From: Takakia lepidozioides
Lineage: Eukaryota > Plantae > Bryophyta
Direction of reading: 5' to 3'
Length of the DNA: 64,000 nt
Assembly (NCBI GenBank): GCA_030704615.1
Contig: CM060733.1
Coordinates: 69,564,001 to 69,628,000, forward strand
Position 1 is the first letter of the stretch. Each line of letters opens with the position of its first letter. Under the pieces are notes generated by a model. That model saw nothing but the letters and a program-made list of their open reading frames with translations. It searched no databases and was not told the origin of the DNA. Positions 34,311 to 64,000 of the stretch are shown here, one piece after another. The translations under genes were made by a program, and so were the position numbers.

Positions 34311-34409
34311 CAAGAGAGAAAGAGAAGACTCTGGCCGAGGCCGGCGTAACTAAGAGCCACTTCGTCTTGCGACTACTGCCCCCTTTTGAGGGTGGGCCCT
34401 ATTCCATGT

Positions 34410-34815: not shown

Positions 34816-34899
34816 AAAGGATTGTATAAGCTGCCGAGTGGGGCGGAATATTGGGTTCAAATCCCACTCATGCAATCACATTAGTAGGTTTAGGTGGGT

Positions 34900-35443
34900 A
34901 TGGATGACAATATCACCATGGGCCTCTTTGCCATTTTCCAGAGTTGCCAGGCTTGCAAACGCACACAAACGTGATGTGGTTGGGCTTCATCCCTTCGCCC
35001 ATCATTTGCTCATATGTCTCCAAAGCCTCTATCCCACTTCCCTGCTGTGCATACCCTGCAAGCATCGCCCTCCACGACACCACATCTCGTTCAGCCATAT
35101 TGTTGAAAACTGCCTTTGCATCCTTTATGCACCCAAATTTGAAATACATGTCCACCAGGGCAGTGTTCAGAATGATATTTGGTACAATTCCAGCTTTGAC
35201 GATGTCACCATGGACCTCTTTCCCCTTTTCCAGGGCTCCCAGGCTTGCACACGCATTGCAAACACAAACGAACGTGCTGTGGTTGGGCTTCACCCCTTCG
35301 CGCATCATTTGCTCATAGGTCTCCAAAGCATTCGTACGACACCCATGCTTGGTGAATCTTGCTAACATTATATTCCACGTGATCAAAGATCGTTGAGGCA
35401 TTTTGTTGAACACTTGGTGAGCATCCATGATGCTCCCGCACTT
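34900..35443 (-). pseudogene. PPR gene fragment interrupted by LTR insertion
   Basis: KCGSIMDAHQVFNKMPQRSLITWNIML...ALVDMYFKFGCIKDAKAVFNNMAERDVVSW; the coding sequence abuts the LTR at 35444. Confidence 0.88.
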
Positions 35444-36341
35444 TGTTAACCGCTGGTTTATGACTTAGACAAAACAGGCTATCAGCACTACTGCCCATTT
35501 CCTAAGACATGCAACAGAGGTTGTCCGATGGTATGCTTTCAGAAACGATTACGAAGTAATCGTTTTAAGGATAGCTAAACCATGCACATCGTATGAATTC
35601 ATCTCCCTAGAGGCTGCTTAATCCTATTGATTCCTATTGATTAAGCTCAACTTACAGTCTCTTTGGCATGGAAGATCTTAGTCAAAAAGACTGAAATCGT
35701 TTCGTTCATACAAACAATTGATAGTCAAGGCAAAACAAGAATTATACTGAGAGGATACACATTCTCACCATCTCACGTTCTCTCATGATGCACATTCTCT
35801 CCATCTCATGTTCACTCTACACAGAGATACCTCGAGTAGCATGGCTTTACTTCAGAGTTCCTCATATCATCACAGAAGTACACATTGAATCACTCTGAGT
35901 CCCTGAATACACACTGATAACTGATACTCATATTGCTCCCCCTTCTAAGTTGCGTGCAGCTTTTTTATACTATGCTCGAAAGAGCCGTTACAGTCTGTGG
36001 TCGTTAATGACCATTTGTCTAACTGCCTACACAACCTAAAAGGTTTGCTATTAAAAAGTGGCTCGTTGCAGTGGTCGTGAGCCATAGTGGTAAACGGTCC
36101 ACTACTCCCTCTATTGGTTGAAGCCGATGCTAACGTGGCCGTGTGATATCGTGTGGTTCACGGCCCACGGTTACTACACTACCCACTACTGCTCCCGTGG
36201 TAATGTACCCTTGTTCCGTCATTTGCTAAGTACCGCGTACTTAGTTGTTTCTGTCTGTGGCCAGGTAGTGTACGTTCATCACTACCCGGTATGTCCCGTT
36301 GTGACCCTCGTTGTCTGGCCCTCGTAGCATAGCCGTTATCA
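35444..36341 (-). repeat. 3' LTR (898 bp)
   Basis: TGTTAAC...GTTATCA termini, adjacent to the polypurine tract; its first ~490 bp recur at 52263-52734. Confidence 0.9.
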
Positions 36342-36642
36342 TTTATCCCCCCCCCCCCCCCCCCTCTTTTGAAATTGTGTTTGCACAATTTCGTCAGTTC
36401 CTGTGCTTGCTGTATTTCTTGGGGATGTAGGGTGGTGGCATGCCCGTCTGCGGGGTAGGAAGTGCGTCCCAGGATTGTTGTGGTGGCAGCTTCTTGTTGT
36501 TGTTGTCGTCACTATCTGGTTGCTCCTCTGGTTCATGAGTAGGCCAACTTTCGTCATCAGGGTGTTTTGCTATTCCGTCCCTTCGTATCATGTCGATTTT
36601 GGTGGTCAAGGTTTCTCGGTAAGTTTGCAGCTCCTCCTTGGT

Positions 36643-39380: not shown

Positions 39381-39799
39381 TTCTCTTAGTCTTGCGGTTG
39401 CTGTAAGGAATTGGAGCACCAATTCCTGTATCACAAGCAGTATGAAGCACACTGGAAGTAGTGTATACAGCAATTTCCAGTTTGCGGAAGAGAAGGTGAG
39501 GAGTTCGCTTCTGGGTTTAAGTAGGGGTTCTCCTCTGTAGGCTTCTTCTCTCGAGGTTCTCGTGGAGGTAATTTTGTCCTGCTGGTTGCCTAGGTTTAAA
39601 GCGCAGTTAGCTTTAATTGCTGGGCCCAGGCTTACCAAGAAGCATTTAACTTCTGGTAACGGTTTTGAGAAAACTTCGTCCTTTTTGTGCCTGATTTTCT
39701 TCCGTTGGTGTTTTATTCGTGATTTGTTTTGGATTAAAGTGATGGTCGTTGATGATTGTCCAGTTTCGGTCAGTTTATGTTCATCCAGCTTGGATGTGT

Positions 39800-42700
39800 T
39801 CATCACTTTGGTACGTGGTCTGTTTTTAGATGGGCGGCGTGGGTGCAGTACTTGCAGCTTGGTTTAATGGCTTTGCCCTTATCATCCGCCGTCTTTTGGC
39901 AATCTGTTGGATTGCGCCGTTGTTCTGCCTCCGTGTTATGATCGAAGGGTAGTGGTGTATGATTACCTCGGTCGGTGGGGTGATCTGGAGCGTACATCTC
40001 GGAGTTCAACACAAGCAGTGACTCGTTGGCTACTTCGTATTCGTTCACGGTTCTGTAGGGCATCTGTGCTGGCCACGGTTCACCATACGGTATACGGGGT
40101 GGTAATGTTGTCCTCCAGATGAATGGTGGTCTAGCTGTCGTGGTGCCCTGAATTCGTGTTGCCACCTGTCTTAGTACATGCCGATTCACCATGTCGTGAT
40201 GAATGTAGTATGCATTGGCGGTTTCACGCTCCTCATCTTTAGTTTGATCTTCTTCGTTGGCGTATAAGTCATGTATAAGGGCTTTGTCATGTATTCCTTG
40301 GTAGCCTTTTAACTTGTTAATATTAATTCGTCCCACGAATTCTTGTTCCAAGGTCTGCAAATCAACAGTTCCATTGTCATGTACCTTTTTTATTTGAAAT
40401 GGTCCCAACCATGGCATTTTTAATTTTCCGCCCAGTTTGATCTACTTGATTTTTGGTAACCACAAAATAATGTCCCCCTCCTGGAAAGATTTCTCTTTCC
40501 CTTCGGATATTATTTTTCTTCGTTGTTCTTGGATCCATGCCATGTTATCTGCGGCGTCTGCTCGAACTTCTTCCAGATGGAATAACTCATATTCCCCGAC
40601 TCGTAGAGATTCCTCTAAACCCCATCGTTCATGAGTTTCGGTTCGTAGTGTGGGTATCATACATTCAATGGGTAATAGTGCCTCTGCTCCATACACAAGT
40701 TGAAATGGTGTATGTTTCGTGGTGACCTTGTATGATGTCCTGACTGCCCATAGTGTTGTGTTCAATTTGGTGTCCCAATCTGTTCGATTGGCATTTACTA
40801 TCTTGGTTTAGTGCATAATATCTTGTTGGTAGATTCGGCCTGGCCGTTTCCTTGGGGATAGTAAGCAGTACTCTTGTGATGTACAATCATGAACTCCTTT
40901 GTCAAGCATTTTATGGCATCATTTATAAAATGTGATCCTTGATCACTGACGAATTCCAGTGGGCAACCAAATCGTGTGATGATGTTTTCATATAAGAATT
41001 TGGTTGTCGATGTGGCAGTGTTGTCTCTTAGTGCCTTGGCCTCTACCCATTTGGTAGTGTAGTCAATGGCGGTGAGGATGTATTGGTTTTGTGTGCACCT
41101 TGCTGGAGGTTTAATGGGTCCCACGAAGTCTAGCCCCCAGCGCTGAAATGGTTCTGTTGGTAGTATTGGGTGCAGAGTACCCTTCCCAGTTCGTTCTACT
41201 GGTCCCATCCTCTGGCAAACATCACACTGTTGACAGTGTTCATAAGTATCTCCAAATACAGTAGGCCACCAGTAACCTGCTAATAATATCTTCTTTGCTG
41301 TTAGGTCCGAACTGAAGTGTCCTCCTGCAATTCCTTCGTGTAGTTCTTGCAATACTGTTTTGGCTTGCTCTTTGTTTACACATCTTCTCATTATGGAGTC
41401 AATTCCTCTTTTGTACAGAATCCCCTTGATCATTGTGTATGGCTTGCTTTTCATTGAAAGCTTTATTTGGTGTAGTCTTCAGGAAATTTCCCTGTGTTCA
41501 GATAGTATTTGATTGGCCATTGCCAATCATCTTGATCTTGATCTTGAATGTCTTTTGATTCTTCTTTGGTAACTGTATAAGCTCCAATACTGATATTGGC
41601 CAATTCTTGATTGTTTGTTTCTTCGTTTTCCTTGTCATCTTCTTCTTCTAAATCTGGCTCTTCCTCAATAATAGGTCCTTCATCAAGAGGTTCATCTTCA
41701 TATGATGAGTCCTCTTCTTCATCAGTGTCATCCATGAGTTTAAGAGCATCTGGATGATCATAGTCTCCTTGAAACATTCCCAGAGCGTCTATAGGATCTG
41801 TCTCTTCATCTGGTGCTTCTGGTTGAACAACAAACATAAATGCGTCGGGAAGTTGATCCTCTACCCCCGTGGCTAGTTCTCCTGTAGTAATCCTTGACAG
41901 ATGATCTGCTGTAACATGTAATCTCCCTGGTTTATGAACAACTTCAAAATCATACTCATGAAGAAGTAATAACCATCGAGCAACCCTGCCACTAGCTAGT
42001 GGTCGATTTGCTAAATGAATTAGAGCCTGATGATCAACAATAAACTTAAAGTGATTGCCAAGTAAATAATGTCGAAACTTTTGAACAACATAAATCATTG
42101 CCATTGCTTCCCTTTCTGTGGTGCTATAGTTCTTCTCGGCTGCTGTCGACAATCTGCTTGCATAATAGATTGGTGAATCTATTGTGCCTGTCACATTCTG
42201 AGCTAAAACTGCTCCCAAAGCAATGCCTGATGCATCATTGTGTGCATGAAATGGTAAATCCTATCTTGGATTTATCAGAATTGGTGCTGCTATGAGTGCC
42301 ATTTTTAGTGAATCGAATGATTCCTGGCAAGCTGGAGATATTCGGCAATCTTGCTTCAGTAGTCTATAGACTGGTGCTGCTCTGTGAACATATTTGTCCA
42401 TGTACCTTCTGTAATAGCTCGTCTGTCCCAGAAATCTCTTAAGTTTCTTGGGATTTTCTGGTGGTGGTATTTTCTGGATAACCTCCACTTTCTTGGATGC
42501 ACCAGAATTCCGTGTTGGCACACAATGTGTCCCAACCATAATCCTGAATTCACACAAAATGTACATTTTTTCCGGATTGAGACTTACTCCATTGTTTCTG
42601 TAGGCTTGTAGGCAAAGTTTTAACTGTGCCAAGTGTTTGGATTTATGTCCGAAGACACTGAAATCATCCAAAAACACCTGCATAAAATCGTTGAGATAAT

Positions 42701-44730
42701 TCTTGAATATCTCATATACTGCTCGCTGACATGTGGCTGGTGCGTTGCAAAGTCCAAATGGCATGACTTTGTAAGCATAGGCTTCCCATTAGTGATGAAT
42801 GCGGTCTTTTCTCGGTCTTCTTATGCCATCTGCACCTGATTGTACCCACTAAACCCATCCATGAATGAGTACATCTCATGTCCGGCCACTGTGTCCAACA
42901 CTATTTCGGTGAAAGGTAGTGGAAATGGGTCTTTCTTGGTTCCTACGTTTAACTTGCGGTAGTCCACACATACTCGTAGTTTTCCATTTTTCTTGGGTAC
43001 TATCACAATGGGCGATAGCCATTGTGGTGTCTCTACTGGGTATATGAATCCTGCATCCAGTAATTTCTTGATTTCTTCCCAAACTTTAGCTGCATAGTTG
43101 GGGTTCATTCTGGAACGGTTCTGACAAATTGGTTTTGTGTCAACTTCCAATTCAATTCGGTGTTGACAGATGTTGGAAGGTATACCCTTCAAATCTTTAT
43201 AGTTCCAGGCAAATACATCATTGTATTCAGTGAATAAGGCAGTGGCTTCTTGTAGAAATGATTCTTCAAGACCTGCACTTACTCGTATTATCTGTGGTTC
43301 TTCCACTGTTCCCAGATTCACTTGAGTCAATTGAGTTTCTTCCGTTACTGTCCATCCTGCAATCTCTTGTCCGATGGTTGCAATCGTGGTAGGTACTTCA
43401 CTGATTTGAATGTCCTCTTCCCTTTCTTGATAGAAACGGGCAGGGTGCTGAGGTGTGTCCATTGCTTCCGGATCTTCTATTCTCGAAGTATTTGGTTCTC
43501 CTTGGGTGTTCACCACGTGACATCCTACTGTTGTGGTATGCTTGACCACTAATTGCCCAATAGGTTCCAACTGTGGATTTCTTTTGCTTGGGTTTTTCTT
43601 CATCATCAAAGTCCTCTTCTTCCAAGGGATCCTTGGAATCTTTGCTTCTGCTCTGATGGAATCCCAATTCCAATTTCTTTGCAGTTCCTACTGCTTCAGC
43701 CAAAGTGTTGTTAGGCATGACTATAACCATGGTTACATATTCAGGACGAAGTTCGTTGATGAACCATGATTTTTGCAAATCATTCCCTGGTGCTTGAGGT
43801 AGCTTCCTGATCAGAGTTTTCATTCTCTCTAGGTAGTCGACTACCGGTTCTTTTTTTTTCTATCTCAGGTTTTGTAATCATATGAAGATTTCACACGTGG
43901 ATTTGTTGGATCTATATCTTTCTTGAAATGCGGCTCTCATATCCGCCTAATTTGCAAAGTGATTTGCTGGAAAGGTTGCCAACCATTCAATGACTTTCGT
44001 GGCCATTGAACAAGGAAATAATCGGATCTTTTCCTGGTCTGTTGCTTCATTGTAAATGGTGCACATGTTCTCAAATTGATTAAGATGGATATCTGGATCA
44101 GATTTCCCATCATATAAAGGAAACGACGGTCTGGTTTTGCTCGCTGCTAAAGCCATTGGTGCAGCTGGTGCAACTAGTTATCCAAACTGGGATGGTCCCG
44201 CTGCTGCTGGCTGTGGTGGTGTTGGTGTTTGTCTTCCAAACAGTGATTCAAAGCTAGGAGGCCCTTGTCCCAATGATAGCCGTCTTCCAGCTGCTGTCCC
44301 TACTAAGCTTAATGAATCTTTAAAAGCTTTGAGTGCAGTCCTGGTTATCCTTTCTGGAGAAGTGGTTTCACTTCTTTCACCTTCTTCACTCAGAATATTT
44401 TCAAATCTTTCTTCCAATATTTCAGCAAAGCCTCGATTTGGACTGGTTACTGTAGAAGGTCCTTCAGATCTTTCTTGTGGTAACCATTCATCAAGTGCAT
44501 TACTGGCAACTCCTTCTCGAGTAGTGTTCTCACTTTCCAACGATCCGATTTCCTGATCTTCTGGTTTATCACTGTCAATTTGTCTTGATGTCTCACCTTG
44601 AATAATATTCAAGTTTTGTAATTCTGGGAACTCTTTTCTCAACCGAGCTTCCCTTTCTGCAACATATTTCTCTATTCTCTCTGCTATGTCTTGTTTAGCT
44701 TTGTCTTTAATTTCCTCATTCATTCCCACA
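39800..44730 (-). pseudogene. Gypsy gag-pol remnants (gag, RT, RNase H, integrase)
   Basis: gag FPLYDGKSDPDIHL; RT LRVCVDYRKLN, MDGFSGYNQV, MPFGLCNAPAT, FLDD; RNase H YYASRL..AEKNYSTTERE, VDHQAL; [45 protein letters not shown]. Protease not seen; many frameshifts. Confidence 0.93.
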
Positions 44731-46099
44731 TCATATACAAAATTCTTTTCCAGTACCCTTTAATCAGTCTTGGTATGTCAGTAAGAAAAATTATAGTGGT
44801 CTTTACCCTTTCTCCAAGATTTACCCTATCTTGCCAGAATCCATATTACGACTTAATTTTCCCTTTACTGATTGATCACCAATCTTTCAATGGGCACAAT
44901 AATACCATTTGTCTTTTTCAGTGTATCTGACTTGTAACAAGTCTTTGGGTATCCAGTACTCTACTGCTTCTACGATCATATGACAATATTCATAATTTGA
45001 ACATCTTTCCCTGAAAATATAACTAGTGTAGCAAACTTTTCTGATCGAGATTAGAGTAATCAATAAAGCTAGACGAGACAACCATTCTTCACTTCTGATT
45101 CTAGAGGTTTACTATTTCATGAGCCCATGAGCTCATGAGCCTATGAGCTCATGAGCCCATGAGCGTGCATCCACGAAATTAGAAATAATCTGCCGTTAGT
45201 GACGGTAATAGGGCATATATCCACGGTAATAGGCACTGTTTCTGAACTCCGGGGACGCGGCTAGGCCTATTGCGGCGCCGTTATTCACATTTAGGGTTTG
45301 GAAAAAGAATTAAAAATGGCAGGAGATGGGTTAATCACGGTGCCGTAATACCAGCTTCGTGCTTCTCGAAAAATTTCTTGGTAGTGATGACTTGAGACCG
45401 GCCTATTGCTGCGACGTTTTTTTGTTTGTGGTCACCCAAAATTATAAAGTAAAGTCTGACATTGGCTTATTGCAACACTATTATATCATTTGTAAAGGTC
45501 TTGTTGTTCCCAACACCTTATACTAGCCTATTGTTGTGTCATTTTTCTGTCAAAGATAAGAGGTCCCATCACATAATATAGTTGAATTGGCTTTTTTTAA
45601 GACTAAATAAATCCCACACTGACTGAAGAGAGGTTAGGAAATTGCCATTCACTCTCCACCTAAGCTTGCAAAGTGTCCTCCTCATCGCCGCCACTTTCAG
45701 ACGTGGACATAGCGATAAACTTGAGTACTTTGGCCTTGACAATTCTTGTATTGGGCCTCCCTCAATTGTATTCTCTCATTTCTTGCAGCCAGTAATTGCT
45801 CTACCCAATTAGGCCTCTCCGCCCTCTTAATGGATCTCTAGCAGCCGTGTTTGCATACAATGGGAGAAGAAATAAGAAGGGGAGGAGGAGACCGAAGTTG
45901 AGGAGGCTCAAGTACGGGAGAAGCCGCTTCCCCCAATGCATGTATTTGAGTGAGTTGCACCATTGTAAGTGTGTTGGGTTCAATTATAGCGACATCCATG
46001 TTTGACCATTATAAACCCTAAACGTTTGTTGACATATGGCAATATTTACATACTGCCATGTTACAGCCTTGCAGACTCGTCCAATGAGGAGATGGTTGA

Positions 46100-48446: not shown

Positions 48447-48822
48447 AACTTTTGCTCACGGGTATGTTCATCCGAATTTCGGCGTTGAAAATTATCCGTG
48501 GGTCAAAATATCTTTCTACTCACGGGTATGTTCATCCCTATTTCGGCGCCAAAATTCGTCCATGGGTTTAAATTCATTTTGATTACGGGTACGTTCATCC
48601 CTATTATGGCGCCGAAATTCATCCGTAGGTCGAAATAACTTTTTGCTCACGGGTACGTTCTTCCCTATTTCGGCGCCAAAATTCATCCGTGGGTCGAAAT
48701 AACTTTTTGCTCCCAGGTACGTTCATCCCTATTTCGGCGCCGAAATTCATTCGTGGTCCGAAATAATTTTTTGCTCACGGGTATGTTCATCACTATTTCG
48801 GCGCTGAAATTCATCCATGACC

Positions 48823-48862
<40 letters not shown>

Positions 48863-49560
48863 CCTCCCGGCGGCGGTTCCTCAGGATTGGCCTATTTCGG
48901 CGCCGAAATTCATCCATGAAGGAGGTTGTGTGTGTGTGTATGGGTTTTTTTTCGACGTAATGGGCCCGATCGTCCCTATTACGGCGCCACAATCCAATGG
49001 TTCTGTCCCCTTGTCGTCCGCATTCTTGTCTGTTCAACCCTTTTGCGACATCGTGATTCATCCATCTGCTCACGGGTACGTTCATCCCTATTTCGGCGCC
49101 GTAATTCATCCGTGGGTTTAAATTTTTTCTTGATATAGGGTATGTTCATCCCTATTTCGGCGCCGAAATTCATCCTTAGGTCCAAAATAACTTTTTGCTC
49201 ACAGTTATGTTCATCCATATTTCGGCGCCGAAAATCATCCGTGGGTCGAAATAACCTTTTACTCATGCGTATCTTCATCCCTATTTCGACGTCGAAATTC
49301 ATCCATGGGTTTAAATTCATTTTTGTTCATGGGTTCGTTCATCCCTATTTCGGCGCCGAAATTCATTTATGGGTGGAAATTCTTTTTTGCTCACGGGTAA
49401 GTTCATTCCTATTTCGGCGCCAAAATTCATCCGTGGGCTGAAATTCTTTTTTGCTCACGCGTATGTTCATCCTTATTTCGGCGCCGAAATTTATTCGTGG
49501 GCTGAAATTTCTTTTTGCTCACGGGTATGTTCATCCCTATTTCGGCGTCATAGCGGTGTG
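48447..49560. repeat. ~64-bp tandem repeat (~16 units) with a 16-bp palindromic core ATTTCGGCGCCGAAAT
   Basis: GGCGCC-type cores at 48545, 48608, 48672, 48736, 48800 and onward (period 63-64); interrupted by a T40 run; degenerate copies extend to ~49870. Confidence 0.92.
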
Positions 49561-49869
49561 ATATCCCTTTCTCGTCCGATTTCGTGCATGTTCATCCCTA
49601 TTGCTGCGTCGTAATTCATCCATCTCGAGGGTTTCGAACTGTCATATTAGGACTGTTCATCCCTATTACGACGCCTTAAATTCCTCCAGATCATGCCATT
49701 CTCATTTGATTGCCATCCCGTTCATCCCTATTACGGCGCCGTAATAGGGGTGTGACATCATTTTCTTGTCCGCTTTTGTGCCCGTTCATCCCTTTTGCGA
49801 CGTCGTAATTCATCCATTCCGAGGGTTTCAAACTGTCATGTCGGGACTGTTCATCTCTATTACGGCACA

Positions 49870-50270
49870 ATGAAGAAGCTGGGCGAGGGGGATATGAAGG
49901 AACTTCTAGAAGCTGGGAAATGGACTCCAGTATTGCGAGAAGCTATAAGATCGACACCCTTACACCATCGGGGGGACTGTCTCGAGGGTGATGTCCACAA
50001 TCGGCCGGTGAAGAGAATAATTGACAACCTCCCAGGAGGCGACGGGGATTCATGGAGATCAGATATGGACATCCACACTCAACCTCGGGGCCCAACGATG
50101 TTGCTTAGGACGCCAGGTCCAAGCAGGACTCCCACTCCCCTGAAAACACTTGTACTACAAATATCTGAAGCGCGTGAAGTGCATTCTTATAGTGGACGAC
50201 TTCATCCATGCTCCAACACTGAGCTTCAACGAGCTCCACAAGGTCCTCAGGCAGAATATAGGGAGAAGGT
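49870..50270 (+). pseudogene. C-terminal remnant of MULE transposase (SWIM region)
   Basis: KLGEGDMKELLEAG, HNRPVKR and P*KHLYYKYLKRVKC...DDFIHAPTLSFNELHKVLRQ parallel LSKLEIDMLEEAG, NDRPTKR and PCKHLYYIYIRRMFC...DTYIHQCTIGPSDVHTLLQR of MULE-1. Confidence 0.75.
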
Positions 50271-52262: not shown

Positions 52263-52734
52263 TGTTAACCGCTGGTTTATGACTTAGACAAAACAGGCTC
52301 TCAACACTACTGCCCATTTCCTAAGACATGCAACAGAGGCTGTCCGACGGTATGCTTTCAAAAACGATTACGAAGTAATTGTTTTAAGGATAGCTAAACC
52401 ATGCACATCATCTCCCTGGAGGCTGCTTAATCCTATTGATTAGGCTCAACTTACAGTCTCTTTGGCATGAAAGATCTTAGTCGAAAAAACTGAAGTCGTT
52501 TCGTTCATACAAACAATTGATAGTCAAGGCAAAACAAGAATTATACTGAGATGATACACATTCTCACCATCTCACGTTCTCTCATAATGCACATTCTCTC
52601 CATCTCACGTTCATTCTACACAGAGATACCTCGAATAACATGGCTTTACTTCAGAGTTCGTCATATCATCACATAAGTACACATTGAATCACTCTGAGTC
52701 CCTGAATACACACTGATCACTGATACTCATATTG
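52263..52734 (-). repeat. 5' LTR, truncated
   Basis: High identity to 35444-35935 with small indels; ends abruptly at an RT fragment. Confidence 0.9.
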
Positions 52735-53412
52735 AGAAAAGTGAATGTGGGAACTGAAGAGGAACCGAGGATGGTGAAGGTAGGGGCTGATTTGGAGCCA
52801 GAATTCTTTGAGGAAGCTAAGAGTTTGTTCATCAAATACAGAGATGTATTTGCTTGGAGCTACGAGGATCTAAAAGGGATACCACCTGAGATCTGTCAGC
52901 ATAAGATTGAACTGGAACCAGGGTCAGTACCAATTAAACAGGCAAGGTACAGAATGAATCCCAACTATGCACAGAAGGTTGGAGAAGAGATCAAGAAGTT
53001 GGCTGAGGCTAAGTTTATATACCCAATAGAGTATACAACTTGGTTGTCATCCATTGTGATAGTTCCTAAGAAGAATGGTAAGCTAAGAGTTTGTGTGAAC
53101 TATAAGAAGTTGAATGCTTGCACGAAGAAAGATCCTTTCTCTTTGCCATTCACAGAAGCGGTATTGGACACTGTGGCAGGCCATGAGATGTACTCATTCA
53201 TGGATGGCTTCAGTGGTTATAATCAAGTGCAAGTGGCAGAAGAAGACCAAGGAAAGACAGCTTTCATCACAGACTGGGGTGCTTATGCATACAAAGTCAT
53301 GCCTTTTGGACTTTGTAATGCACCAGCAACCTTTCAGAGAGTGATAAGTGAATCTTTTCATGAGTATCTGGATGATTTCATGCAGGTGTTCTTGGATGAT
53401 TTCAGTGTGTAC
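52735..53412 (+). mobile_element. Gypsy RT fragment (relative of the 35444-52734 family)
   Basis: VFAWSYEDLKGI, LRVCVNYKKLN, MDGFSGYNQV, MPFGLCNAPATFQR, FLDDFSV. Confidence 0.92.
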
Positions 53413-54185
53413 ATCCACCATGTTGAGCTCAATCCGCTCAGCCAGCAGAAACACATCTGCTAATGTGGGTTGGGCTGCTTGTAACAGGGTTGCATCTCGC
53501 ACCCTTCTCTTGAGCTCCTTGTCCAGAATTCCATACCAAAAGTGGATTGCCTATGCTTCAGTAACCCCTTGGGTCACACTTATCAAGCGCCTCATACGAG
53601 TGTACGCCTCTCGCAGGCTCTCACTGGATTTGCGCTGGAAGTCTTGCAAACTTCGCAGCTTCTCTGTCCGTACACCTTGGTAGTTCCTCTGCAACTCCTG
53701 GAAGAACTCCACCACCGGGTTGAATCTAGGCACATATGTTGTAGTCGTGGTAGGAGGAGTAGTAGCACCTTTTGAACTGGTACCACCTGCAAAAGTACCA
53801 GCACTACTTGTTCCACTACTAGTGCTGGCAGTGGGAGATATTGGTACTGATGCAGCTACTGGTCGCGTCGTGACATCTCTGGGAGGATCAGAGCAGGCTC
53901 GGGGCATGACACGGCGTGAGTTGGCAAACGTCGAACACCTGGCCGATATCCCCCTCCACCTATAGTGGCACACCTCAATGTGTCTCGGTATTGGGCAATA
54001 TCAAGGTTCTCAAAAGCCATAGGCATGACCCTCTTGAACAACTCTGCCCGCTGGGCACATGCTTGTGTCCACACATCCGGATCATCAAGGTTGAGGACTA
54101 CTGCAGCCTCCCTGCGAATAGATGCAGGCAAATCCGGCTCTCGGCCAAAGAGAAGGAAATATGGTGAGAAGGAGGCAAGTGATGG
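53413..54185 (-). mobile_element. patchwork of gag (minus), ~50-bp protease (plus) and integrase (minus) fragments; gag and protease pieces match the DNMT-Gypsy element
   Basis: 53413-53872 is an inverted near-copy of ~59865-60323; ~53872-53925 matches 61738-61791; ~53926-54185 encodes SLASFSPYFLLFGREP...AFENLDIAQYRDTLR (integrase C-terminus). Confidence 0.85.
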
Positions 54186-55322
54186 TCGGCTCAGGGGGAT
54201 CAGGCGGGCAGCCTAGATCTGGCTCTGGGGGGACAGGGAGTGTGGGAAGTAGTGCAACTGGAGCTGGGAATACTGTGAATATCGTGGGGCCAGTAGCAGG
54301 GAGTGCTAAGGGGCCACCACTGGGTGGAAGATCCACCACAACTACAACAGGTCCTCAAGGACTAGCACCAACAAGGGTGCCAGCATCTGTCAGTGGGCAG
54401 AGGGTAGGGCCACAGATGGCGTTACAACCAACACGGGCAAAACCACCTTTTCCAATATATTCAGGAAAAAGGGGATCCCAATGTACACATTAGCTAATTT
54501 GAGCACATGTGTATAGTGAACAATGAGAATGGCGATGATGCCAAGATGAGACTGTTTCCTTGTTCCCTTATCAAGAAGGCAAGTAAATGGTATGCAAGAT
54601 TCCCTGATAATCATTTCATAACCTGGAATGGCTTGAATACATCATTCCGAAATAGGTTCAGGACAAGTAAAACTTAGGATGAAGTATATGGAAGTTTACA
54701 ACAGTTAAAGCAAAATAAGCATGAAACTGTTGAGGAGTATATGGAAAAGATGGAATTGATGATGAAAAAGCTGGCTATTGTACCAGCACTAGGTTTACAG
54801 AAGACTTGGTTTGTGATTGGACTAAGACCAGAGTTGCAAAAGAAAGTGGATATGTTACCCCATAATACAGTGGAGGAGGCATTTGAAACAGCTAACAAAA
54901 TTGAGCAATTGAGAATGCTCAGAAGAGAGAAAAGGGATGATGAGGTCTCTGAGGATGAGTCCGATGAGGAAGAAGAGCAAGAGCTGAAAAGGAAGAGTAA
55001 GAGGAAGGAGAAGTTGAAGAGGGATAACTATGAGAAAAGATTAGAAGAAATCTTGAAGAAGTATGCCACAGAGGCTGCAACACATTGGAGGAAGGGTGTT
55101 TGGTGTGCAAAGTGCCAGAATGAAGGCCATACCACCATTGAATGCCACATGAAGGAGAAACACTGTACTATCTGTAAAATGGATAACCATTCTACTGAGA
55201 ATTGTTACTACAACAGAAGGACAGCAGCTAGAGAACCTAGGCAAATAAGGGTACATCAAGTGCAGCCCCAGCCAAGAAGAAACAGTGATCAGGACCACTA
55301 TGGTAGGCCTGGTGGTTATAAC
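54185..55322 (+). mobile_element. Gypsy gag fragment with two CCHC zinc knuckles
   Basis: KPPFPIYSG, ETVEEY, WFVIGLRPEL, CAKCQNEGHTTIEC, CTICKMDNHSTENC; similar to the gag at 43600-44160. Confidence 0.85.
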
Positions 55323-56179
55323 AATGTGTCAAGTTAAATAAGCACAGTGTGAAACTAACTAGAATAAAGCTAGTTATTTGTATTTAACACTTGGATTTAG
55401 GTCAAGTGTTAAAGCAGGTGTCAAGTTTAGTTTGACACCTGAACTGTCTTATCTTCACGAGAACGTCAGTCGCGCAGCTCATCTCTCTCGAGTTGAGCCT
55501 GCGCGACCGAGCTCCTTCATCGTTTAGAACTGAGTGTGCTTATGATGGGAGGATAGGTTGATGTGGGGTGGAGTCCCCATAGCTTGGGGTGCCCCTGGCT
55601 TGACTATTATCTTAAAGAGTGATAGCGATGGATTTCATGTTTCTTGTGTCAAGAGTGTGTTCTTTAGTTTTCTATCACTCGAGAGAGATGAGCCATCTAG
55701 TTTTCTAGTGCTAAGCTAGATATAATGTTTGTTTTAGCACTATTATAATATACCTTGGTGTGACACAGGTCTGTGAATGATTCAACTGAGTGCTTAACCA
55801 TTCCGGAGCGGCAGAAAGCTAATAGCTTGCGGCGGATACTTCACTTGCAGTTACTGCTAGCGGATCTTGCTGGAGTCACGCGTTTAGTAGAGATCTTGCT
55901 CAGGCTACTGGAGATGAATGCTGTCTGATTGATTCATCAAGTAACGACGGGTTAGAGGTTAGTTCTTTTTCGTGCCTAGATTCTTCTGCAGCGATCCTGT
56001 CATCGTCTCAGGGCTGCCGTGTGGAGTGGAGACGAAGGGCTTTCCGTGGGTGACTCCAAGCCAGCCCATTTTTTTGGATTGAAGAGGCATGTGAGCAAGG
56101 GTACCGTTTATGGAGAGCCCAAGAATCAGGGTATTACCCAGCTCAAGTTTCAGCGAAGCCTGCGGTCTGTAGCTGAGGA

Positions 56180-57069
56180 GCGGCCAGGCAGAGAGACGAC
56201 TACAACGAGAAGGAAGAGATGGTAATGCCGGTATCGCAGGGCACTCGTCAGTAACTGCCCGACGCCAGCTGTTATTCAGCCTTTCTGTGGCACTTGGAGC
56301 ACTAAGGTTGGGCAATGTTGATCTTCCTGCAAAAACAACAGTTTCAACGAGAATAAAGCTCAAAGATGTTGAAAATCCCAAGCTGCAGGATGCTCTCAGG
56401 GCGGCGGTTGCTAGAGACCTGGAAATTGCTGAAGAATTGTTCTCAGCTTTGATAGATGAGGATTCCGCAAATGCCAGTGTCTGGTCCAACCGGGGGAGTG
56501 TGAGGGTCTCCCTTCTGAAGTTTGAGGAGGCGACCCAGGATTTCAGTAAGGCTATTGAGTTGGCTCCCGAGGCTCCAGTCCCATTTCTTAATCGCGTCAT
56601 TTCTTACGAGGCACTTGGACGCTATCAGGAGGCTATTGCCGACTGCAAAACTGCCATTGTCAATGACCCTGAGGAGTTTGCAGCTTGGTTTAACTTGGGA
56701 AAGGTGGAAGCACGAGTACGTGACTATGACACTGCTTTGACTGCTTATTCCAGAGCCTCAGTGCTGGCTCTTGGAATTGCAGGATACCGACTCAAGCAAG
56801 CTCTGGTTCTCTTTCAGCTCGACAGATTGGGAGAGGCCAAGAAACTGATACAAGGCCTTGTCCAGAAGCATCCAAATTACACTGAGGCTCATGCAGCTCT
56901 AGCGGCAGTGCTGTGGAAAGAAGGTGACCGCAGCCGGGCAGAGGAACAGTTCTCTGAGGCCACTTCTTGGGAACCGCAGTACAGCAATATCAGGTGGATT
57001 GGTGTAGAGCTGCAGTGGCCACCAGGTGCCGTGGAAGCCATGGCCAAGTTTCTTAATATCACTAACTGA
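56180..57069 (+). pseudogene. intronless TPR-repeat protein, plastid/cyanobacterial type, with RRQLL twin-arginine-like signal; N-terminus broken
   Basis: TPR motifs VWSNRG, FSKAIELAP...FLNR, AWFNLG, HAALAAVLW, and C-terminal WPP...FL. The upstream in-frame region has several stops and no intact ATG start. Confidence 0.75.
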
Positions 57070-57614: not shown

Positions 57615-59550
57615 CGCTTCTCAACAAGACGCCGCACTCGAGAATCCAGACAAAGAGTATCCAGAGAGCAGGGGCTGCCAAGCGTGTGCCTGCGAAGGAG
57701 GATCCCAGCACTGCAACCTCTGTTGGTAGATTGCAATTCCACCAGTTCGGGCACTTGTAGGGCACGGTATTTTGACCTTGTTGGGAACTTGCTGTGAAAC
57801 GTGGGAACAGTTTTTGATGGCGAGAACGTTTTGGGTGTGAAAAATTAAAAGAAATTCGTTCTTTGATCTAATTTAAATTAGATAGAGCCTGTTTGGCCAT
57901 AACTTTGGCCTACCAAGGCCGTTTGACCCAAAACTTGCACAGGGACCTACAGAAAGGGGAAATCTACCTATCTAGACCTGGTTTTAGTTTTTTGGACTCT
58001 GCTAAAAATCTATGGAATTTTTTGAGTGTGAGTGTGCTATGAAAGATCCACAATTCTGTTTCTAGAACCTGTTGTGGTCTACATGAGAGACAAATCTGTG
58101 GTTGTCCTCCTTGTATGGTTGGGGGAAATGAGGACGTAATTGAAGGGCAGGTCTCTTCTCTTAGCCTTTGCACACAAGGGGACAGGATTTATGTTTCCCA
58201 AGGAACTCAGACTGATTTGAGTGGAGAACAGTTGGACGAGTTGATTGCATACTGGGAGTCAGGCATTAGCAGTGGACAACAGTCTGCTGTAGTTGGCGTT
58301 GAGGGCCTCAATATTGCTTTGGACAGTCAGAACTCTGTTGGAGCCAACAGTTTTGCAGCTGTAAGTGAAATACCCAAGTGGGTGAAAACTAGGCTTGGAA
58401 CACAGCCAAAGACAGCCCCGGGGACCAAGGTGTTCAGCCACAAGGCTGTGGTGTACTGGATCAGAGGAGCAGGAGCTACACAAGTTTGTGCAATCAGACA
58501 GCGTTGCAGCCGGACACGCTCTGCACAAGGCAACCACGAGCGGGGGTTCATTAGCGAGGACAAGTTTGTTCTGTTTGAATGAGATGCAGTCATTCGCAAT
58601 GAGGACACCCGCAACCGTCTCAAAGCTTTCGAGTTGAGAGACTATCAAACCCTACCTTTGTTTTCTTTAGTGTTCAGTGAGGGGGAGATAGCAGAGTGTT
58701 GCTTTGTCTCTACCTGGCAAAAAGAGAAGGAGGGTTGGTTAGAGCGAGCTACTGTAGCTTGGGACAAGGTTAGTGGCAGGTTTCTGGACATAGATATACC
58801 TCCTACACCTTACCATCATGCAGAGCGAGGCAAGTTGATAGCATAGATCAGGATTAGATCTTGCTTGGGCGGGCTTCTATTCTTCCCTTCCATCTCTGTA
58901 CTATTTTCATTACCTTGTACTCGTAGTTGCCAAAGCCTCTCTTGGTGGAGGCCAGTCAGTCCGGGGTTTTGGGCTGGGATATTCTGCAGGATCAGCATTG
59001 CAGCTGGATTTTGGTGTGGGGGTGTTGATGTTTTGATTTCTTGTGTTTGGATCCCCCCCCAACACCTGCATGCTTGACTGTGCGCCATGTTGGTTTTGTG
59101 TGGGCGCTTGCTTTCATAGGGATAAGGCCAGATTTGATCACCGGTCAATCCTAGAGTATGCTGTCGGTGGTGAGGCTGGAGTGATGACCAGCAAGACCAC
59201 CAGTGTTTCTTCTATGGTGAGGCTGGGTTGATGACCAGCCAACCATAGGAGTTCTTGCGGTGGATGCAGGTGCAGGTGCCCTGAGCCATTGGGATATGAC
59301 CCTTAAACTGCAACAGGTGCCCACCCGTGTCACTATTATAATTAGTACTAGAGCCCTATAGTGTCACGTGGGGGAGGTGCACATTGTGAGTGTCATCACG
59401 GAGTTACCCAAGGGTTTTGAGGGGAGTACGGCTACAGGCAGTAACAGTGAGAGTGGGTTCACAAGACGAGGTATTCGGTTCAGACCACCTTCACCGCCAC
59501 CCTCAACTAGTGCAGAGTAAGACACAGACTCGGAGGCTTCATCAACAGGT

Positions 59551-62500
59551 GTGCAGTTTCATTCGCCATTGTTGTGGGACGACATGGAGGAGATGTATGG
59601 AGCTACCAAGGGGCCTCGTAGGTACTCTGGAGCTGTGGGCACAATCGAGTTGGATGACTTTATCCAGGAGTTCGACAGCTGGTGTGATTTGCAGCAGATG
59701 CGCAATCCACAACTATTCACCCCTTTCATGGCGTGGAAGGGACTGTTCCAGCATTTGGAAGGCCCGCCTATGGACGATTACCACGAGTTCAGGCGAGGAC
59801 ATGAAGCAGAGATTGAGGAGTGGAGGATGTATTGGTCACCTGACTACGTCTCCATTACTCGAGGCACGACGCGACCAGTAGCTGCATCAGTACCAATATC
59901 TCCCACTGCCAGCACTAGTAGTGGAACAAGTAGTGCCGGTACTTCTGCAGGTGGTACCAGTTCAAAAGGTGCTACTACTCCTCCTGCCACGACTACAACA
60001 CATGTGCCTAGATTCAACCCGGTGGTGGAGTTCTTCTAGCAGTTGCGGAGGAACTACCAAGGTGTACGGACAGAGAAGCTGCGAAGTTTGCAAGACTTCC
60101 AACGCAAACCCAGTGAGAGCTTGCGAGAGGCCTATACTCGTATGAGGCGCTTGATAAGTGTGACCCAAGGGGTTACTGAAGCTCAGGCAATCCAGTTCTG
60201 GTATGGAATTTTGGACAAGGAGCTCAGGAGAAGGGTGCCGGATGCAACCCTGTTACAAGCAGCCCAACCCACATTAGCAGATGTGTTTCTGCTGGCTCAG
60301 CGGATTGAGCTCAACATGGTGGAGGAGCGAGTTGTTACCATTGGGTTTGGCAAGGACATGCCTGCACGAGGCGCAGCTGCCAGCCCACAGGCACAAGGGA
60401 CTGCCCAACAGCGTGGTCAGGGGGGCAAGGTTTCCCAACCCAAGTTCCATGGAGCTTACAAGGGACCTCAGGTGCAGAGGCCCGTGGCATCTTTTGCAGG
60501 CCAACAACAACCAGGGGTGATATGTTGGACATGTGGAGGACCCCATGTCAAGAGAGATTGCCCAGAAAGTGGCAAAAGGCCGGCACAAACACAGCCTGCA
60601 CAGTTGCAGTGTGGGCATTTGTGGCAAGTATGGGCATGGAGATGCCCAGTGTTATGACTTGCATCCTGAGTTGCGCCCAGGCCAGTTCCAAGGGAACAAT
60701 GGTGGCCGGGGGCGAGGTGGACCAGCCCAGAGAGGACGAGGTGGTTGGGCACGAGGTGCAGGCCAAGGGCAAGCATGGCCACGGACGCGGAGGTCAGGGT
60801 GTTGACCAAGGCATGGCCACGGACGCGGAGGTCAGGGTGTTGACCAAGGCATGGCCAACCGGCTTCAGCAGCTAGAGCAGAGGCTCGCTGCCATGGCTAC
60901 ACCTCAGGCGGTACCGGCTCCCAGGCGGGATGGTCCACCTCTAGCGCCTGAGGGAGGAGATATGGGAGGCATGGGATTCATGTGCGGAGCAGCACTACCA
61001 CTAGAGCAGGTGGAGTCTGCTGCAGCCGTGACTCGAGGAGCAGCACGAGTTCCTGAGCCACGAGGTGCAGAGGTGGAGTTGGATCCACAACGTGGGGAGG
61101 CAAGCCGTCAGGCGAGGCTTCCTCAGTCATTCACATTGGCGGAGACAGTGTCGACGCCATCCATGACACCTAGTTCTCGCCCGACTGTTACCGAGGCGGA
61201 GGTTTCTATGCCATTGGGGAGAGCTACACGTGCAACACTGATACCTGCTGCCAAGGCTAGTATAGCCGGTGTGTTGTTGGGGGCAGCCACCTCTGTGTGT
61301 CAAGCCCCACTGTTCTCGGCAACCATGATTGCGACGCCGGGGGTAAGACCAGCTGCAGTGTTCAGACTAGCAGCAACACTCTGTGAGAGTGGGGAGGTCA
61401 CTTCATCTTCTGCGGAGTTACTGGAAGGTGTAGTGGCAGAGGGATCCTCGGATTTGAGGGTCAAGACTGCCACGGCTGCGCCATGGCAAGCTGCAGCTGC
61501 CAGGTTGACGGAGCTGCCAGCTAGGCCAGCCTTTGAGCGCGCCATGGTGACACCTGGAGTTGTCTTGTTAGACAACCAGGGAGGCATTTTTACTTTGAGT
61601 GGACCGGCAGGCAAGAAGTACCGGCCACTGCGGGTCTTGTTGGACTCGGGAGCTCAGCCATTGATGTTGGGCAGAGCTGCTATTGCAGGTTTGGGCCTCA
61701 TGGAGGCGGATATGGAGCCTTGTCCTTTCCAGATACAGACATCTCTGGGAGGATCAGAGCAGGCTCGGGGCATGACATGGCATCAGTTGGCCATTAGACT
61801 GCAGCCGGATCATCCTATCGATGGCTCAGTAATGCGAGCCAAGGCCATTGTGACAGACGCGGTCTCTTACGATGTCCTTGTTGGTGGGGCAGTGTTATAC
61901 CCCATGGGCTTCACCCTGGACTTTTGGGAGGAGTCAGCATTCTACAGGCCTGGATGGCAGTCAGGGGATGGTCGTCATCCACAGCTCCCTGTGACATTCA
62001 TTGGGGGTATTGCGGCTGCCCAACGGGGCAAGATGCCAACACTAGCCGCCTTTACAGCTGCAGTTAGTTGGCCTGGAAGGTTGCTGGAAGGCAATGCCCA
62101 TGCAGAGGATGTGCCACCTCCAGCAGAGCAGGATGACATGCATGGTATGGTGGAGTTGCCTGCCATGGTTGCTCACACTCCATTGTGGGGTACGAGCAAG
62201 GATTTGCAGCAGGTTGCTGATCGACGGGTGCAACAAGCCTGGGTAGAGGCTTTTGTACCGTCAGGAGAGGAGGAGAGTGCAGGACCACCTCAGTTGTTAC
62301 CATTGGATACCACACCTATTGTGTGGCAGTATCCGGATGAAGGCATTTGCCTTCTGGACTTGTTTGGCGGGATCAGCACCGGATTGGCTGCTGTGCTACA
62401 GGCAGGTGTGCGGGTAAGGCGTTACCTGTATGTGGAGAGGGATGAGACTGCACGACGCGTCTCACTGCGCCATGTGGCTCAGTTGGTACAACAGTACCCT

Positions 62501-64000
62501 GACTTGTTGCCTGTGTCTGCAGTTCGTTGATACCAACAAGCCTTGCCAGCAGACATTTCCTTGTTGGGGGCGCAAGATTTGGAGCAGGTTGGCTCCATTG
62601 ATCTGATAGTGGCAGGTTGGCCCTGCCAAGGGCATTCATCAGCCGGGCATGGCAATGGATTGCGAGACTCGAGGACGGGTCTGTTTTGGGAGATGGTGCG
62701 GGTTTTGCGCCACTTGCAGCTTCATCAAGCTGTATCTCCAGCATACATCTTGGAGAATGTGCCACTGATGGGCGATTCTCGGGCCAGGGTGATGGCCAGT
62801 GTGCATCAAGTCCGGTCGTGGCTTGGGTTAGCAGTGCTGCTGGATGCAGCTGCAGTGGGATCACGGGCTCATCGTCCACGGCTATGGTGGACTAACTTGA
62901 TGCCACCCGCACTGCTCAAGCGTGCATTTGATGGGGTGCAGCAGCCAACACACCTCATAGTGGACAACATTTTGGACACATGGAGGCAGTCTCAATGTGT
63001 GAGACACGATGACCGTTCGTCTTTGGCAGTGGTCAACAGTGTGGGTCAACCACGAGCAGCATTACCTACACTTTTCAGCTTCCCAGGATCCCATGCTTTT
63101 CGGGATGGTGGACCTGGCCTCCTGTGGGATGCTCAGTTGCAACAGTTAGTGGAGCCTAATGTCGACGAGCGAGAGCGGGCTATGGGATTTTCCACTGGGA
63201 CCACGGCGGTGCCTTCTCTTTCTGAGGCATCACGTCGTCAGGTGTTGGGGCAAGCAATGGATCTCAATTGCTTGACCTGGATTATCAGCTTGGCTATGGC
63301 TGAGCAACGTAGAGTGCGGAGTGCACTTCCCTTGACGGTCTCTCTGCCTACCGAGACGGTACAGGCAGCGAGTGGGGGCGAGCCGGTGAGGACCACGGGG
63401 TGTAGACATCCATGGCACACGTGGGGGTGCTCGAGGTTCAGAGGGAGTTGGCAGCCAAGGCAGCTGTGATGGATGAGGTTGGGGATTCTTCTCGGGATGA
63501 GGAGGTTCTCAATGATGAGATGATGGGGCAGGATGAGGCCTTGTCATTGACTGAGCAGGAAGGGAGTACTGCTCAAGAGGTTGCAGCATAGCAACCACGG
63601 GACGCGTCCTCTACCTCTAAGCCCACTGGACTTAAGGTTGCAGTTACGGAGGACAGTTGGGAGCCTGACATTGGACCCATTGTCACCGGAGGAGAGAGAC
63701 GACGTATACGGCGGTTCCTGAGGGCTTACAGGAATTGCTTTGCCTTCAGTTTGAAGGACTTGGGAGCACTGAAGGGTCAAGAGATCCGTATTGAGTTGGC
63801 CACTGACACGCCAATCTTTCGGAGACCCTATAGATACAGTGACATGGAGAGGTCTTTGATTCAGATGAGGACTCAAGATCTCTGGGAGGCAGGTTTGGTG
63901 GAGCTATCTGGTGGAGAGTATGCTTCAGCCACAGTGATGCCAGCCAAGAAGGATGTCTATGGCAATTGGACGGAGAGACGTATGTGCGGTGATTACCGGC
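59551..64000 (+). mobile_element. Ty3/Gypsy polyprotein gag - protease - C5 DNA methyltransferase - RT (runs off window)
   Basis: Gag (FQRKPSESLREAYTRM), knuckles CWTCGGPHVKRDC and CGICGKYGHGDAQC, protease VLLDSGA (61643), DNMT, RT start (CFAFSLKDLG, PIFRRPYRYS, YASATVMPAKKD, RMCGDYR). A few stops and frameshifts. Confidence 0.93.
62342..63300 (+). pseudogene. DNMT3-like C5-cytosine methyltransferase domain within the Gypsy polyprotein
   Basis: Motif I LDLFGGI, II YVERD, IV DLIVAGWPCQ (PC 62621-62626), VI LENV (62753), VIII AHRPRLWWTNL, IX ERERAMGF, X RRQVLGQAM; one in-frame TGA at 62528-62530. Confidence 0.93.

Follow-up and report, generated by a model that had tools for sequence, protein, structure and literature searches.

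Why would a transposon carry its own silencing enzyme? The question dates from 2018, when the sole Gypsy example was algal and its enzyme showed no activity in yeast. It is raised again by a 64,000-nt stretch of the Takakia lepidozioides genome (GCA_030704615.1, contig CM060733.1, positions 69,564,001 to 69,628,000; hereafter the window), near the end of which a cytosine methyltransferase (DNMT) domain lies between the protease and the reverse transcriptase (RT) of a retrotransposon. The element belongs to a high-copy Ty3/Gypsy family, of which this copy is dead. Its parts, together with those of a second fragment, are as follows (window coordinates).

53,414–54,190, minus strand: second fragment belonging to this family, scrambled, adjoining another Ty3 RT
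57,930–59,389, plus strand: 5' part of the repeated element; start approximate, taken from a jump in contig depth
58,115–58,846, plus strand: additional ORF ahead of gag, family unknown, with an internal stop at 58,580, inside the repeated region
59,390–60,660, plus strand: gag with two CCHC knuckles, recognized by homology to Marchantia proteins carrying the same Gag sequence
60,775–60,850, plus strand: 38-bp tandem duplication, confined to this copy or to a subset (contigs skip 37–38 bases)
61,560–61,990, plus strand: aspartic protease (retropepsin), LDSG motif, catalytic Asp at 61,643–61,645
62,336–63,295, plus strand: DNMT3-type C5 cytosine methyltransferase domain, from PF00145 and motifs
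63,296–63,588, plus strand: linker at the end of ORF1, carrying a one-base indel (63,425)
63,589–63,597, plus strand: conserved in-frame stop in a type I readthrough context, TAG CAA CCA
63,592–64,000, plus strand: start of ORF2, N-terminal part of a Ty3 RT, truncated by the window end

A first-pass annotation had placed the start of the element at 59,551, but the gag frame reaches back to about 59,390 and repeated DNA to about 57,930, where the summed contig depth of one sequencing run, which is not a copy number, rises from about 500 (57.0–57.7 kb) to at least 250,000. Within this repeated 5' part, contigs bridge 58,115–59,270 and 58,833–59,440. At the 5' boundary we detected neither a TGTCA terminus nor an exact self-primer of 10 nt or more, and the extra ORF had zero Pfam matches and zero tblastn matches in 80 related loci. 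This copy's 3' end and its terminal repeats fall beyond the window or its resolved part, and end structure is read here from relatives. The stops, the one-base indels (60,618 and 63,425) and the 38-bp duplication that had been noted previously are all present. The copy is dead because a stop at 62,528–62,530 interrupts the DNMT and, further upstream, two stops (59,518 and 60,037) and the indel at 60,618 disrupt gag. This indel is absent from many other copies in contigs of the same organism, and in four runs every contig that spans the DNMT stop at 62,528 departs from the window sequence there.

The assignment of the coding regions relies on both profiles and homology. Pfam recognized the DNMT (PF00145, E 9.8e-14, with the internal stop entered as X). 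Gag (Retrotrans_gag, E 0.0099) and the protease (gag-asp_proteas, E 0.032) scored below the cut-off; Gag, whose knuckles lie at 60,523–60,561 and about 60,608–60,655, is identified by homology to relatives, and a region homologous to the protease precedes the DNMT in related loci. The window RT is 78% identical to that of the related locus L023 over 105 columns. Together, gag-protease-RT in the window and RT-RNase H-integrase in relatives give the Ty3/Gypsy order.

A methyltransferase inside a retrotransposon could reflect a host gene captured once, contaminating algal DNA or a misassembly. We found no support for any of these, and we regard them as refuted by homologues, contig depth and related loci, with a negligible probability remaining. 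For the family, 65 homologues pass E<=1e-10; the best-matching named ones, from Calypogeia and Marchantia, show up to 72% identity across the whole query, and others occur in Sphagnum, Closterium and chlorophytes. In runs of one organism, contig depth across the DNMT equals that across gag and RT, and four studies have the repeat under a single organism label. The domain order recurs in dozens of loci and in named plant proteins: in related loci the DNMT follows the protease, with RT, RNase H and an integrase ending in a PHD finger downstream. Finally, the second fragment, which combines a gag piece (95% identical), a 54-nt protease piece and an integrase C-terminal piece (53.9–54.2 kb), is surrounded by PPR-DYW genes in the same window. 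The family is thus multi-copy and not confined to one plant. The first-pass annotation had presented the case as an extension of the phenomenon to a PPR-DYW-bearing land plant; the element is indeed native there, but it is not special to that host, since liverworts and peat moss share it and Closterium and chlorophytes have relatives of it.

The same annotation had described the methyltransferase as catalytically intact and similar to DNMT3 or DRM. Motifs I, IV, VI, VIII, IX and X are present in unrearranged order (motif I at 62,354–62,371, catalytic Cys at 62,624–62,626, ENV at 62,753–62,761, motif X at 63,251–63,265), but the domain is not intact in this copy, the stop at 62,528–62,530 falling between motifs I and IV. 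Profile comparison bore out the similarity to DNMT3 (DNMT3A, E 5.6e-22); the best DRM-type entry (E 7.2e-9) and HhaI (E 3.4e-8) scored more weakly, and an affinity with DRM was rejected. The predicted structure of the L023 domain (pLDDT 84) matches DNMT3A/B (E 1e-18, TM 0.70). By sequence and by modelled fold, the domain is of the DNMT3 type.

Across 291 full-length family domains, the catalytic Cys is kept in 290, the ENV Glu in all 291, and the two motif VIII arginines in 287 and 290. The dN/dS ratio is 0.12 for L053/L063 and 0.19 for L023/L024, which indicates purifying selection on the DNMT of the family, and recently decayed copies reach 0.5–0.9. For the window against L023 and L024, pN is 0.19–0.22 with synonymous sites saturated. 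It has to be considered whether the domain is maintained as a DNA- or RNA-binding module, for instance holding a circle junction for integrase, with methyl transfer incidental or absent. Of the 291 domains, 109 have Glu in place of the motif IV Pro, the Klebsormidium domain showed no activity in yeast (PMC5890265), and CpG depletion does not exceed that of other elements: CpG o/e is 0.49 for the DNMT element, hence not lower than the 0.14–0.38 of other Ty3 pieces in the window. A binding role alone is nevertheless very unlikely in our view, given that the catalytic Cys, Glu and Arg are near invariant across more than 150 clusters at 50% identity.

The first-pass annotation had also read gag, CCHC, protease, DNMT and RT as one frame after repair. 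The domains and their order were correct, but the single frame was not, because the TAG at 63,589–63,591 is conserved in the family. No variant reaches 5% at 63,587–63,598 in four runs, with 24 variant rows listed across the 211 bases compared. At the DNMT/RT junction, 43 of 50 distinct loci carry a stop followed by CAR-YY, a pattern shown by 100 of 1,481 control windows (6.8%); because these 43 loci belong to a handful of subfamilies, they are not independent. Strict CARYYA follows the stop in 12 of the 50 loci. The second codon after the stop varies (CCA, CCC, TCA or TTA, encoding Pro, Ser or Leu) with YY kept, and at one locus, L047, a sense codon stands in place of the stop. RT is in frame with the upstream ORF across the stop. 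In databases, 52 proteins terminate after protease-DNMT, and five Marchantia models of 1,278–1,281 aa each end 81 residues past the DNMT domain. We rejected decay as the origin of this TAG, which is invariant within the organism and whose signal recurs in those 43 loci. The stop is a family feature that matches the readthrough signal of tobamoviruses. Type I readthrough is defined by the motif UAG-CAR-YYA (PMC3542737, PMC2754532), and signals of the tobacco mosaic virus type give about 6–30% readthrough in plant reporters. From this similarity, it is likely that the stop is read through at a low rate.

Thirty-one of the 43 loci form one large Sphagnum-like subfamily with CAA CCC or CAA CCT, whose sixth base departs from CARYYA. 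Most of them have an in-frame ATG three codons past the stop, so that reinitiation would be possible. The two-ORF layout could then be real in itself, with ORF2 expressed by reinitiation, splicing or a separate transcript and not by readthrough. However, in both the window and L023 the stretch from the stop to the conserved RT start is free of in-frame ATGs, and CAR-YY is held at the nucleotide level across divergent subfamilies though the second amino acid changes. Moreover, a separately made ORF2 would need another route into the particle, because it lacks Gag. We consider this layout without readthrough very improbable.

Stop-bearing elements cluster in both family trees (DNMT tree, 22 rows, SH-aLRT 99; RT tree, 9 rows, SH-aLRT 94). 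The two trees are broadly congruent; the DNMT tree has distant viral DNMTs as outgroup and comprises neither host DNMT3 nor Klebsormidium sequences, none of which was among the matches listed from three protein searches. A sister group, with Closterium gene models among its members, contains uninterrupted DNMT-RT forms.

Because the conserved stop matches a readthrough signal, we infer that the DNMT is produced together with Gag, whereas RT-integrase arises only through readthrough. Fusion to Gag directs a partner protein to the particle, as is established in retroelement biology, and the conserved stop predicts the DNMT as a particle component at structural levels. Our preferred reading, which we consider reasonably probable, is that ORF1 encodes Gag, CCHC knuckles, protease and DNMT3 up to the UAG-CAR-YYA stop, with occasional readthrough yielding RT, RNase H, integrase and PHD finger. 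The DNMT would be packaged at Gag-like abundance, many per particle, freed there by the protease, and would methylate the element's own cDNA before insertion. New copies would already be methylated on arrival, as host heterochromatin is, and, together with the integrase PHD finger, this would let them settle in tolerated chromatin, which is the likely purpose of the enzyme.

The DNMT, though made in bulk, might instead act in the nucleus on chromosomal DNA, be it integrated copies of the element or loci of the host, and so dampen transposition or alter host silencing. The Gag fusion would send the enzyme to the particle and we identified no targeting domain on the DNMT, both of which make this unlikely. 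Yet Gag-level amounts surpass the need of one cDNA, self-limitation has been raised as an idea (PMC5890265), and in moss the host DNMT3 methylates CG and CHH sites de novo (PMC6453930).

The form in which the cDNA is integrated may be read from the relatives. These show A-internal-B or A-internal-B-A-B arrangements with TG...CA termini and 4-bp target duplications, and DIRS-like A-coding-B-A-B repeats were seen in L059, L080, L028, L032 and L093. Two full terminal direct LTRs are not found in relatives, whose ends are permuted; membership in Ty3/Gypsy is therefore atypical and defined by the enzymes. The permuted ends and 4-bp duplications suggest integration from circles: 1-LTR or 2-LTR circles would be cut at an internal palindrome and then integrated. 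Cutting circles at an internal palindrome is an unusual route for a DDE retro-integrase. In the relatives, a candidate primer site is complementary to a repeat of the element itself, which suggests self-priming.

A broader scenario can be offered only tentatively. These elements may form an ancient Ty3 lineage of green plants (chlorophytes, zygnematophytes and bryophytes including Marchantia) with an active DNMT3, whose bryophyte branch combines a tobamovirus-type leaky stop, DNMT at Gag stoichiometry, cDNA methylation in the particle and integration from 1-LTR or 2-LTR circles cut at an internal palindrome. Dozens of DNMT3 copies, unrecognized among "hypothetical" genes of Marchantia, could then contribute to its methylome when silencing lapses. 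The family is also a caution that inventories of bryophyte DNMT3 overlook many copies borne on transposons. Liverwort and moss elements, with uninterrupted Gag-protease-DNMT models in Marchantia, make the question of the enzyme's role testable using existing methylomes and mutants.

The Gypsy-DNMT3 kind of element was already known from Klebsormidium in 2018. In openly accessible articles and preprints, we found no report of DNMT elements in land plants or of the leaky stop, and the accessible text of PMC12344493, PMC6453930, PMC6317226, PMC6673714, PMC9940879, PMC10952607 and bioRxiv 10.1101/363937 describes neither. Two later papers speak of "streptophytes", citing or pointing back to the 2018 work, and an earlier notice is possible.

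The closest known system is KnitGypsy-Dnmt3 of Klebsormidium nitens, described as an independent acquisition in one alga (de Mendoza et al. 2018, PMC5890265). As described there, it shares Ty3/Gypsy domains, an intronless, unrearranged DNMT3-related domain under purifying selection, and DIRS-like A-coding-B-A-B repeats, here seen in relatives as the window lacks the 3' end; the permuted ends offer an explanation for these repeats in the algal element. By description, its DNMT lies in the Pol ORF with RT and RNase H, whereas here it forms the end of the Gag-protease ORF, ahead of a conserved stop of the leaky type, and its host is an alga, whereas here it is a land plant with relatives in bryophytes, Closterium and chlorophytes. 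Its domain produced no methylation in yeast, a result that its authors call inconclusive. SymbioDIRS-Dnmt3 of Symbiodinium is likewise a retrotransposon-borne DNMT3 with split repeats and proposed cDNA methylation, but it is a DIRS element with a tyrosine recombinase and an unrelated RT, and its domains showed de novo CG methylation in yeast (PMC5890265). Tobacco mosaic virus has the same in-frame UAG followed by CAR YYA ahead of its polymerase part (PMC3542737, PMC2754532); there, readthrough of an RNA virus replicase is measured, whereas here it is inferred and one subfamily deviates at the sixth base. Tcn1 and Chlamyvir are also Ty3 elements of non-seed plants and algae, with self-priming predicted for Tcn1 (Neumann et al. 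2019, PMC6317226), but they carry chromodomains, and the accessible text mentions no PHD or methyltransferase, whereas relatives here end their integrase with a PHD finger. Finally, EpiLTRs are LTR elements with a cytosine DNMT, but one related to DNMT4, accompanied by DAM and a chromodomain and found in Cymbomonas and Euglena; the preprint describing them sets "streptophyte Gypsy-DNMT3" apart (bioRxiv 10.64898/2026.05.21.726589).

The coding parts of the element lie on the forward strand, between about 59,390 and the end of the window, where the element is cut, and follow the order gag-CCHC-protease-DNMT-RT given by the first-pass annotation:

From about 59,390, forward strand: gag with two CCHC knuckles
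After gag, forward strand: retropepsin with an LDSG motif
62,336-63,295, forward strand: C5 cytosine methyltransferase domain (Pfam PF00145)
Up to the window end, forward strand: Ty3 RT ORF, of which 136 codons are included
53.4-54.2 kb: scrambled second fragment of the element family

Gag and protease were identified by homology to relatives because their Pfam scores fell under the cut-offs. PF00145 matched the larger methyltransferase piece with E 1.4e-13, and with E 9.8e-14 when the internal stop was read as X. The window copy is dead. Stops interrupt it at 59,518, 60,037 and 62,528, single-base indels fall at positions 60,618 and 63,425, and 38 bp are duplicated; lesions of these kinds had been recognized at first reading. 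In a comparison with contigs of four public runs (40 of the 667 substitution rows listed), every contig covering 62,528 departs from the window there, and so do many at both indels and at the duplication. The counterpart of the stop at 60,037 is a sense codon in the second fragment. An ORF of 243 codons, interrupted by a single stop (58,115-58,846, forward strand), lies inside the repeated 5' region; it has no Pfam match and no counterpart in the related loci, and may be an accessory gene of the window subfamily.

The window element is clearly a repeat and belongs to a native family. In the public run X1, contig depths add up to about 500 over 57.0-57.7 kb and to 250,000-1,200,000 from about 57,930 onward, with DNMT covered as deeply as gag and RT; such a sum is not a copy number. 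The stretch is present at shares of 0.3-0.8 in runs under one organism label from four studies, and in one plant metagenome. Its neighbours are PPR and DYW genes and pieces of hAT and LINE elements; a repeat shared by four studies under one label, with a second fragment among PPR/DYW genes, speaks against the algal contamination or misassembly that had initially been considered. The PPR genes or fragments are of the PLS type (8,800-10,700, 14,050-14,750, 31,300-31,800 and 34,400-35,460), one with E, E+ and DYW domains. Further Ty3/Gypsy elements without DNMT lie at 17,150-20,900 (reverse), 36,600-44,800 (reverse) and 52,700-55,340 (forward); the element at 36-44 kb contains two additional long ORFs (626 and 405 aa), neither with a Pfam match. 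A tandem array of about 64-bp units with a long T run within occupies 48,450-49,870. Directly upstream of the element, an intronless TPR-repeat ORF (56,173-57,069, forward) faces an intronless copy of 60S acidic ribosomal protein P1 (57,267-57,620, reverse; Pfam E 6.5e-18). The P1 copy lacks the usual acidic C-terminal end, and contigs of the public run X7 diverge from the window at 57,337 and 57,674, which suggests a truncated duplicate or a retrocopy.

The retrotransposon encodes a conserved enzyme of DNMT3 type. When nine intact domains were combined into a profile, it matched DNMT3A with E 5.6e-22, against 7.2e-9 for the best DRM-type entry and 3.4e-8 for HhaI, so that of the DNMT3/DRM likeness proposed earlier the DNMT3 half stands and the DRM half is rejected. 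The motif order is unrearranged, and the predicted structure of the domain from L023, a close relative (pLDDT 84, pTM 0.87), resembles DNMT3A/B at TM 0.70. Of 291 full-length domains drawn from 368 proteins, 290 retain the catalytic Cys and all 291 the ENV Glu; the arginines of motif VIII are retained in 287 and 290. Values of dN/dS between intact or distant pairs were 0.12 and 0.19, and 0.5-0.9 for recent decayed copies among themselves; between the window and its relatives dN/dS was saturated, with pN near 0.2. A non-catalytic role for the domain appears very improbable.

The first-pass annotation had also joined gag to RT in a single repaired frame, a reconstruction contradicted by a conserved stop-CAR-YY between DNMT and RT. 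Using a threshold of 5% or more in four runs, we found 24 variant rows across 63,490-63,700 and none at 63,587-63,598, the site of TAG CAA CCA. We then considered 80 metagenome loci, excluding 9 of chlorophyte layout and 8 ending too early; the remaining 63 and the window collapsed to 50 distinct sequences. A stop-CAR-YY was present 200-450 nt past DNMT in 43 of these 50, versus 100 of 1,481 control windows. The other seven comprise four with an in-frame stop in damaged context, one whose site is displaced by an insertion, one that has lost the region, and the locus L047, with a sense codon. The variant-free site and the conservation in 43/50 rule out decay as the origin of the stop which, judged by sequence, is programmed. 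Strict CARYYA was found in 12 sequences across divergent subfamilies (CAA CCA, CAG TTA, CAA TCA, CAA TTA), and 31 sequences of one Sphagnum-like subfamily present CAA CCC or CCT, mostly followed by ATG. Likewise, 52 protein records, fragments among them, terminate after PR-DNMT, and five models from Marchantia, 1,278-1,281 aa long, end 81 residues past the DNMT domain. The element family has a two-ORF layout. UAG-CAR-YYA is described as the type I readthrough motif in PMC3542737, and PMC2754532 puts its readthrough at 6-10% in stable lines of Arabidopsis and at about 30% when assayed transiently. The simplest reading would make Gag-PR-DNMT the major product and its RT-RH-IN-PHD extension the minor one. 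Production of ORF2 by a route other than readthrough seems quite improbable; neither the window nor L023 has an in-frame ATG ahead of the conserved RT start.

Relatives carrying DNMT were found at many loci and in several plant and algal genera, not as a one-off insertion. The land plants named as carriers are Marchantia polymorpha (many loci), Calypogeia fissa and Sphagnum, which bears out the proposed extension of such Gypsy elements to land plants; outside them, Closterium and the chlorophytes Hariotina, Tetradesmus, Haematococcus, Chromochloris and Monoraphidium are named. With clustering at 50% identity, E stayed below 1e-76 throughout the best 150 clusters. Among the matches listed in these protein searches, the closest named relatives of the window element come from peat moss and liverworts, with no vascular plant named, in keeping with a bryophyte host. 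Three layouts occur: Gag-PR-DNMT-stop-RT-RH-IN-PHD (window, bryophytes and further relatives), the same order without the stop (Closterium gene models and further relatives), and RT-RH-DNMT-IN-PHD (chlorophytes). The chlorophyte-type loci L081-L083, L086-L090 and L094 and proteins such as P0123, P0134 and P0192 have DNMT3 between RNase H and integrase and a PHD finger; in this type the motif IV Pro is often replaced by Glu. In a DNMT tree of 85 rows thinned from 245 (viral outgroup; SH-aLRT support only), the window, Calypogeia and Marchantia form an 8-row clade (100) nested in a 22-row stop-bearing clade (99), outside of which fall four short fragments labelled stop-type. An RT tree of 58 rows unites the PR-DNMT-RT layouts in a single clade (100), within which the stop-bearing elements are grouped (94). 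The breadth of carriers and these trees, built without Klebsormidium or host DNMT3 sequences, point to a single old lineage, as opposed to an acquisition by Klebsormidium alone.

Elements of the Sphagnum-like family start with TGTCATG and finish with a CA(C/A)GACA-like sequence, flanked by 4-bp target duplications (3/5 exact, 2/5 with one mismatch), and are laid out as A-internal-B or A-internal-B-A-B. The inner B is preceded by a polypurine tract, and 3' of the 5' A lies a putative primer site with complementarity to A (over 8-16 nt in 10/13 loci). The inner B|A joint consists of both termini with two-base spacing, and one A|B joint retains primer-site sequence. A complete relative of about 9.1 kb (L059:1,679-10,805) has A-internal-B-A-B ends and a 4-bp target duplication. 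Such structures would be expected from 1-LTR and 2-LTR circles cut open within the LTR. Alternatively, the short form could come from post-insertion recombination between two B copies.

On balance, we favor an account in which DNMT would enter the particle fused to Gag, be freed by the protease and methylate the cDNA, perhaps in circular form, such that new copies would arrive already marked. Two observations count against this account: the element shows no stronger CpG depletion than the window's other Ty3 pieces, and the domain of KnitGypsy-Dnmt3, the Klebsormidium Gypsy element, had no activity in yeast, a result that its authors do not treat as decisive (PMC5890265). Action of the enzyme on chromosomal DNA instead is unlikely, although the least so of the alternatives to methylation of the cDNA by a Gag-borne enzyme.

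In a search of openly accessible main texts, we found no report of land-plant elements of the KnitGypsy-Dnmt3 kind, of the stop or of a circle route; PMC12344493 and bioRxiv 10.64898/2026.05.21.726589 cite streptophyte elements solely by reference to earlier work. The kind of element is itself already known from KnitGypsy-Dnmt3, which resembles the window element in its workings and whose repeat layout, as noted in PMC5890265, matches the A/B ends of the Sphagnum-like relatives. In contrast to the window family, however, KnitGypsy-Dnmt3 carries DNMT in one ORF with RT, and the window element is therefore set apart as a variant of KnitGypsy-Dnmt3 rather than a member.
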